Notes under the pieces: model-generated
Database searches by the model: none
What the model was told of the DNA's origin: nothing
What the model saw: only the letters and a program-made list of their open reading frames with translations
Position numbers and translations under genes: made by a program
Shown: in pieces, positions 34,913 through 35,551 of the stretch
Layout of the letters: every line of letters starts with the position of its first letter
Position numbering within the stretch: position 1 is the first letter of the stretch
Assembly (NCBI RefSeq): GCF_051903065.1
Contig: NZ_CP178438.1
Source: Escherichia coli
GTDB taxonomy: Bacteria > Pseudomonadota > Gammaproteobacteria > Enterobacterales > Enterobacteriaceae
Length of the DNA stretch: 64,000 bases
Strand: one strand, 5' to 3'

Positions 34913-35089
34913 GTGAAACAAAGCGAGTTCAGACGTTGGCTCGAATCTCAGGGCGTCGATGTAGCGAATGGCAGCAACCATTTGAAACTCAGGTTTCATG
35001 GGATGCGCAGTGTCATGCCGCGTCCCCCCTGCGATGAGATTAAAGAACCATTGCGTAAAGCAATCCTGAAACAACTCGGTTTGAGTTAA
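34913..35089 (+). CDS. hicA: HicA mRNA interferase toxin
   Basis: 58-aa ORF from GTG (VKQSEFRRWLESQGVDV...); immediately upstream of hicB. Confidence 0.75.
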   Translation: MKQSEFRRWLESQGVDVANGSNHLKLRFHGMRSVMPRPPCDEIKEPLRKAILKQLGLS

Positions 35090-35113
35090 TCGCCAATTAA
35101 AAAGGTTAATGAC

Positions 35114-35551
35114 ATGCGAGAGACAGTCGAAATTATGCGTTATCCCGTCACTCTTACACCCGCGCCGGAAGGCGGTTATATGGTTTCTTTTGTGGATATC
35201 CCTGAAGCGTTGACCCAGGGCGAAACTGTCGCTGAAGCGATGGAAGCGGCAAAAGATGCTTTACTGACCGCATTTGATTTTTATTTTGAAGATAACGAGC
35301 TTATCCCGTTACCTTCGCCATTAAATAGTCATGATCACTTTATTGAAGTACCTTTGAGCGTCGCCTCTAAGGTATTGCTGTTAAATGCTTTTTTACAGTC
35401 AGAAATCACTCAGCAAGAGTTAGCCAGGCGAATTGGCAAACCTAAACAGGAGATTACTCGCCTATTTAACTTGCATCATGCGACAAAAATCGACGCCGTC
35501 CAGCTCGCGGCAAAGGCGCTTGGCAAAGAGTTATCGCTAGTGATGGTTTAA
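35114..35551 (+). CDS. hicB: HicB antitoxin
   Basis: 145-aa ORF (alternative start 35135 gives 138 aa); C-terminal DNA-binding region. Confidence 0.85.
   Translation: MRETVEIMRYPVTLTPAPEGGYMVSFVDIPEALTQGETVAEAMEAAKDALLTAFDFYFEDNELIPLPSPLNSHDHFIEVPLSVASKVLLLNAFLQSEITQQELARRIGKPKQEITRLFNLHHATKIDAVQLAAKALGKELSLVMV

Follow-up and report, generated by a model that had tools for sequence, protein, structure and literature searches.

A rare R31M/H38P allele of HicA in the chromosomal hicAB operon of Escherichia coli, and a second conserved histidine of the toxin family

The 64,000-nucleotide stretch of Escherichia coli DNA analysed here (the window) carries a toxin-antitoxin pair that we identify, with high confidence, as the type II hicAB operon which E. 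coli carries on its chromosome and which is already known from K-12. The locus itself adds nothing new, E. coli hicAB being among the best-studied reverse-order toxin-antitoxin systems; what is worth keeping is the allele, a rare H38P/R31M toxin, together with a second histidine that is conserved family-wide. Judging from conservation across relatives, we give roughly an even chance to the view that His38 is a second essential HicA residue and that the H38P/R31M toxin of this strain is attenuated or inactive beside a conserved HicB, as one more route to disarming the toxin. If this is true, H38P joins a 445-bp deletion and a 22-bp frameshift as routes by which lineages repeatedly disarm hicA. 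An unexplained histidine as conserved as the catalytic one is a modest lead, for which natural H38P, R31M, and double alleles exist on otherwise identical backgrounds.

Identity and setting of the hicAB locus

The toxin gene hicA occupies positions 34913-35089 on the plus strand (GTG start, 58 amino acids [aa], M31/P38 allele, as read from the open reading frame list and the sequence) and lies directly 5' of hicB on one strand, in toxin-first order. In its 138-aa form hicB spans 35135-35551, also on the plus strand, and an alternative in-frame ATG at 35114 gives a 145-aa form with the same end at 35551. From the end of the hicA stop at 35089 there are 24 nt to the first hicB ATG and 45 nt to the second. 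The sequence-only reading of this DNA had described a 58-aa HicA with a GTG start 24 bp from HicB, the latter 145 or 138 aa long depending on its start; coordinates, spacing, and both ATGs agree with the open reading frame list and the sequence. It had also called the toxin-first order known but atypical for the family. The order is indeed known, but for hicAB it is canonical, and only among type II systems at large is it atypical (PMC11594946, PMC7167474).

Both proteins have nearly or fully identical crystallised counterparts. HicA matches chain A of PDB entry 6HPB at 56 of 58 residues (E=3e-34), being ~97% identical to the crystallised E. coli HicA, while HicB is 100% identical to 6U0I_A in its 145-aa form and to 6HPB_B in its 138-aa form, the length held in 6HPB and 6HPC. 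Pfam assigns HicB residues 10-74 to HicB_lk_antitox (PF15919, 32.8 bits; cutoff, 27) and residues 95-141 to HTH_3 (PF01381, 31.4 bits; cutoff, 23), so that HicB has an N-terminal HicB-like domain (partial RNase H fold) and a C-terminal helix-turn-helix (HTH). An AlphaFold (AF2) model of HicA, made for the K-12 allele, two residues different from that of the window, has the dsRBD-like alpha1-beta1-beta2-beta3-alpha2 fold (pLDDT 93), and Foldseek aligns it to 6HPB_A with a TM score of 0.94 and to HicA of Burkholderia pseudomallei (6G26) and Streptococcus pneumoniae (5YRZ) with scores of 0.72-0.76. The sequence-only reading had let its call hinge on similarity to the HicA fold, and that similarity is present.

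The gene order rlhA(ydcP)-yncJ-hicA-hicB-ydcR is shared with K-12 MG1655, and the 951-bp locus was matched in 5,415 of 5,426 complete E. coli genomes, in whose annotation hicA and hicB appear. Over its full 64 kb the window has an identity of at least 99.98% to E. coli strain 23CRST027, where hicA is annotated as WP_047625518.1. We identify the locus as hicAB because of the near-identity to crystallised proteins, the position between yncJ and ydcR, the HicB Pfam domains, and the HicA fold match; the earlier assignment to a hicAB type II pair is thereby borne out. Membership of this HicA in its family is decided by orthology to the founding member, K-12 HicA, that is, by near-identity and the same chromosomal position.

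Profile searches taken by themselves might suggest that the two open reading frames are chance frames or a mis-call rather than a toxin-antitoxin pair. HicA scores 23.1 bits against a Pfam gathering score of 27 and had no match in the NCBIfam and PADLOC searches, in which HicB gave only a sub-threshold HipB match and only weak matches in its HTH region, respectively. Identities of 97% and 100% to crystallised HicA and HicB, the fold match, conserved synteny, and annotation in thousands of genomes speak against chance frames, and the crystallised-protein identity together with the occurrence of the locus in nearly every complete genome refutes the idea, to which we attach practically no weight.

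Which of the two hicB starts is used was considered from sequence variation. RefSeq and the K-12 annotation place the start at ATG 35135 (138 aa); crystal structures exist for both lengths. The seven-codon extension (35114-35134) is variable: its third codon reads GAG in 13 and GGG in 7 of 20 sampled loci, the variant GAGGGA being a better Shine-Dalgarno (SD) sequence for ATG 35135, and one strain carries E6K within it. A polymorphic extension fits a non-coding ribosome-binding region better than coding sequence, and the 138-aa start thus appears mildly favoured over the 145-aa start.

The circuit into which these genes fall is known from K-12. HicA is a small, ribosome-independent mRNA and tmRNA endonuclease of dsRBD fold whose known catalytic residue is His23 (PMC8138530, PMC6159526), and HicB is a fully folded antitoxin whose N-terminal part has a partial RNase H fold and whose C-terminal part is an HTH (PMC11594946, PMC8138530, PMC7167474). 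HicB binds HicA and covers His23, and its HTH domain represses the proximal promoter P2 at the operator hicO (PMC11594946). CRP-Sxy stimulates the distal promoter P1, which has a CRP-S site and yields a transcript from which both genes are translated (PMC11594946, PMC8138530, PMC7167474). The P2 transcript begins at the hicA ribosome-binding site, with the consequence that only HicB is made (PMC7167474), and surplus HicA lifts HicB off the operator, whereby antitoxin is restored (PMC11594946, PMC8138530, PMC7167474).

Candidate elements of this circuit can be placed upstream of hicA. A repeat search found a perfect 7-bp inverted repeat, GTAAACA-ctaa-TGTTTAC (34863-34880), which is a candidate for the HicB operator hicO at P2. 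Immediately downstream, the plus strand reads TATACT (34889-34894), a -10-like hexamer and the candidate -10 element of P2, followed by an SD-like GGGAGG for hicA (34904-34909, plus strand) 3 nt before the GTG. A start ~7 nt after TATACT (near 34901) would fall at the SD, which fits the published start of the P2 transcript (PMC7167474). Among 20 sampled E. coli loci both repeat arms, TATACT, and the SD are invariant, and spacer base 34870 alone varies in the repeat. A simple sigma-70 scan did not call the candidate P2, and for the CRP-S site of P1 there is no match to TGCGA-N6-TCGCA with two or fewer mismatches in 34690-34912, the best having three to four. Another 7-bp inverted repeat, around the hicA ribosome-binding site (34880-34886/34917-34923), was rejected as a chance occurrence: the leader folds with z = -0.77, and its minimum free energy (MFE) structure does not contain this pairing. 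Two upstream single-nucleotide polymorphisms (SNPs) separate the window from K-12, A at 34733 and G at 34855. The latter (plus strand) is a lineage SNP, the 19 other loci of the 20 sampled having A; it precedes the inverted repeat by 8 nt and could fall in the P1 transcript leader or promoter region.

Other toxin-type genes and mobile remnants lie in the same window. As the earlier reading had proposed, two toxin-antitoxin loci occur within 18 kb, hokB/sok lying 17.2 kb upstream of hicA: hokB (17548-17697, minus strand) was recognised by its translation and is annotated as such in 23CRST027, and the sok antisense RNA region (17692-17843, minus strand) matches Rfam RF01794 with 111.5 bits. The closeness of hokB to hicAB is a conserved E. 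coli chromosomal layout, without a known functional link. Just downstream of hokB/sok is the RydC small RNA (17069-17132, minus strand; Rfam RF00505, 92.5 bits), and 8 kb downstream of hicAB is ortT, a 57-aa orphan membrane toxin gene (43016-43189, plus strand); hokB, hicAB, and ortT place three toxin-type genes within 26 kb in a conserved E. coli layout. Between ydcL and ydcO sits an IS200/IS605 element (28770-30492, positions according to the annotation of the near-identical strain), made up of a tnpA pseudogene with an internal stop (28770-29276, minus strand) and, beside it, an intact insQ/TnpB RNA-guided endonuclease gene (29284-30492, plus strand). Farther along, a type VI secretion islet (~53030-59450) holds PAAR, Vgr family, M23 metallopeptidase, and hypothetical genes and is followed by remnants of a frameshifted IS1A and a truncated ISAs1 transposase. 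Near the window's start, ydbD (DUF2773; 771-3076, plus strand) is a frameshifted pseudogene in the 23CRST027 annotation.

The R31M/H38P allele and the second conserved histidine

The sequence-only reading overlooked that this HicA is other than the K-12 protein. A 2,001-bp comparison with K-12 (window 34127-36127) shows 17 differences, of which exactly two fall within hicA, and both are non-synonymous; all three differences in hicB are synonymous. Codon 31 (35003-35005, plus strand) is ATG (Met) where K-12 has AGG (Arg), through 35004 G>T, and codon 38 (35024-35026, plus strand) is CCC (Pro) where K-12 has CAC (His), through 35025 A>C. The sequence around the catalytic turn, NGSNHLKL, is intact, with both G20 and H23 of the G20-x-x-H23 pattern present. 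At position 38 the window allele lacks the second conserved His, that of the P-x-H motif after beta3, and has Pro38, a radical change to the invariant motif P36-R37-H38-P39.

The effect is visible in the family profile. Against Pfam HicA_toxin (PF07927) the K-12 protein scores 30.9 bits, R31M 29.4, H38P 24.6, and the double variant 23.1, so that the window HicA lies below the gathering cutoff of 27, which is operational and not a defining criterion for HicA membership. H38P costs 6.3 bits and R31M 1.5; the shortfall comes almost entirely from H38P.

To place residue 38 within the family, conservation was scored in three sets of relatives. In a close set of 88 homologues, all less than 90% identical, 86 have His at position 38 and 87 have it at position 23; Lys or Arg occupies position 31 in 81 of them and Met in none. 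When 1.84 billion cluster representatives were searched exhaustively with a profile, 325 relatives were returned, and in a distant set of 115 full-length relatives, 35-70% identical to K-12 HicA, His38 is kept in 107, His23 in 113, Gly20 in 85, and Lys or Arg at position 31 in 95. A 53-sequence alignment (41% mean column identity) has H23 and H38 as its only polar residues conserved at 90% or more. The broader profile built from that alignment finds other crystallised HicA toxins; a narrow subfamily profile reached no other HicA in the PDB. His38 aligns with a His in Thermus thermophilus TTHA1913 (1WHZ, VVPFH), in S. pneumoniae HicA (5YRZ_B, TILH), and in B. pseudomallei HicA (4C26, VPHP); the crystallised HicA 9SVK_A has no His at column 38 (VPYS), and a few representatives are likewise without it. 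The His after beta3 is conserved family-wide, while published alignments describe one conserved histidine, without a role for a second, and in reviews His23 is the one catalytic residue known for HicA (PMC8138530, PMC6159526).

These data bear on the simplest alternative, that the operon is a fully functional, canonical hicAB in which R31M and H38P are neutral, the toxin being as active and as well neutralised as that of K-12. The open reading frame is intact, the SD and start are preserved, catalytic His23 and Gly20 are in place, and only His23 is named as catalytic in the literature, all as neutrality would have it. What neutrality fits less well is a His38 that 93-98% of relatives retain, even at identities as low as 35%, and that three other crystallised HicAs also have, a proline placed within P36-R37-H38-P39, and a Pfam loss large enough to take the protein under the cutoff. 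We consider neutrality a serious possibility, though one with clearly less than an even chance.

The location of residue 38 was read from the AF2 model, in which helices span residues 3-12 and 45-55 and strands residues 16-19, 23-28, and 31-36. A turn of two residues connects strands 23-28 and 31-36, and the register would set Pro36 opposite His23. By the same beta-hairpin register, residue 38 is predicted to lie beside the G20-S21-N22-H23 catalytic turn, and residue 31 at the far tip of the hairpin. By alignment, residue 38 also appears to fall just before the HicB-binding helix. Its S. pneumoniae equivalent is His51, which stands between the HicB-contacting residues Leu50 and Glu53 (alignment and PMC6159526), and the peptide ELNKYTERGIRKQAG is cited in this connection (PMC12652419).

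H38P might on this account act mainly by weakening HicB binding and not RNase activity, with looser neutralisation or altered P2 derepression as the outcome. Residue 38 precedes the segment that matches the loop and helix with which S. pneumoniae HicA binds HicB, and the HicB contacts on either side of His51 point the same way. A toxin that escapes its antitoxin should, however, be strongly counter-selected, and HicB carries no compensating change, being 100% identical to the K-12 protein. An effect chiefly on HicB binding therefore seems improbable.

Allele frequency, loss of hicA, and selection

To see how common the allele is, haplotypes were counted in 5,426 complete genomes with 34-nt queries and every 28-mer seed covering both variant sites. 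The K-12 haplotype has 3,919 matches, 3,306 exact and 613 with one mismatch, most of the latter genomes belonging to the group with the 22-bp frameshift described below. M31/H38 occurs in 28 of the complete genomes and R31/P38 in 5; the window's M31/P38 is found in 3, strains 23CRST027, 23CRST031, and ECNB21-M121. In a larger protein collection, M31/P38 is on 203 contigs and R31/P38 on 260, while M31/H38 and the K-12 form are on at least 1000 contigs each. H38P thus occurs on two backgrounds, which differ at ~1% of flanking sites, and either arose more than once or moved by recombination. These counts cut both ways for neutrality: M31/P38 persists, on contigs as in complete genomes, and H38P is found on the R31 background as well, yet both H38P haplotypes are very rare among the complete genomes.

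Outright loss of hicA is common in the species. About 1,198 of the 5,426 complete genomes, including that of Nissle 1917, match only the 3' part of hicB and ydcR. They carry a 445-bp deletion, corresponding to window positions 34868-35312, in which half the inverted repeat, the entire hicA gene, and the beginning of hicB are gone; in Nissle 1917 the truncated hicB is annotated as a pseudogene. A second lesion is a 22-bp deletion (35030-35051) flanked by TGCG direct repeats, whose exact junction is present in 606 of 5,426 genomes, including NCTC8623; it frameshifts hicA and leaves hicB intact, with an identical HicB protein. The segment at the hicB 5' end is exact in 4,171 genomes. Altogether about one complete E. 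coli genome in three has lost hicA to a deletion or a frameshift, and the losses counted here agree with a published survey in which HicA matches were rare in phylogroups B2 and C.

Besides deletions and frameshifts, rare missense alleles strike conserved hicA residues. In a spread sample, strains KMi006 and MB53 carry the natural HicA alleles G20S and R37C (codons 20 and 37), both at conserved residues: G20S lies in the Gly turn, the equivalent of which is needed for toxicity of B. pseudomallei HicA, and R37C in the PRHP motif. Toxin-antitoxin calls made from gene presence alone overstate the number of functional pairs.

Intact hicA genes are under purifying selection. In 16 loci chosen independently of hicA state, hicA has 7 non-synonymous and 14 synonymous changes (pN/pS 0.13) and hicB 7 and 31 (pN/pS 0.07), with no significant difference in constraint between the two genes in this sample (Fisher p=0.22). 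A species-wide decay of hicA had been suggested by hand-picked strains, in which the hicA changes were all non-synonymous and those in hicB synonymous; the pN/pS of 0.13 in the unselected 16-locus sample led us to reject it. Constraint on hicA as a whole is again what neutrality of the two substitutions would lead one to expect.

On balance we lean slightly towards a probably attenuated M31/P38 HicA. This is suggested by a radical change at a residue conserved about as strongly as catalytic His23, by the placement of H38P inside the invariant PRHP motif, by the likely adjacency of residue 38 to both the active-site turn and the antitoxin-binding helix, and by the demonstrable tolerance of E. 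coli to hicA loss. A weakened HicA would leave the operon with HicB as its main working product. Attenuation is made less probable by an allele that is intact, in frame, spread over 203 contigs, and not obviously decaying, by the lack of a His at this column in 9SVK_A and a few representatives, and by reviews that give no catalytic residue besides His23, and the purifying selection on hicA means that decay is not to be assumed generally. Growth arrest and RNA cleavage, neutralised by HicB, are known for the K-12 allele only (Jorgensen 2009, cited in PMC11594946).

Comparison with known systems

The closest relative is K-12 hicAB itself (b4532/b1438; 6HPB, 6HPC, 6U0I), with which the window shares locus position, gene order, spacing, the HicB protein, and the upstream inverted repeat, -10, and SD; it differs in R31M and H38P of HicA, the two upstream SNPs, and the three synonymous hicB changes. 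The Nissle 1917 and NCTC8623 lineages share locus and flanks with the window, and they demonstrate that the toxin can be lost in E. coli, but in them hicA is destroyed, whereas the window hicA is intact, with missense changes only.

Among the other crystallised HicAs, the comparators are those of B. pseudomallei (4C26/6G26), S. pneumoniae (5YRZ), T. thermophilus (TTHA1913, 1WHZ), and Yersinia pestis (HicA3, 4P78). They have the same dsRBD-like alpha-beta-beta-beta-alpha fold, with a catalytic His where beta2 begins, but are only 22-25% identical in sequence, and their HicB partners have RHH, not HTH, DNA-binding domains (PMC11594946). In 1WHZ, 5YRZ_B, and 4C26 a second His follows beta3, in contrast to the window allele, which is without it.

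Beyond the family, mqsRA, rnlAB, and higBA likewise place the toxin gene first and use extra promoter logic to give an excess of antitoxin (PMC7167474, PMC8138530), although their proteins belong to unrelated families. The hicAB transcript that yields only antitoxin originates at a promoter upstream of the toxin gene, not at one internal to it, and lacks the hicA ribosome-binding site.
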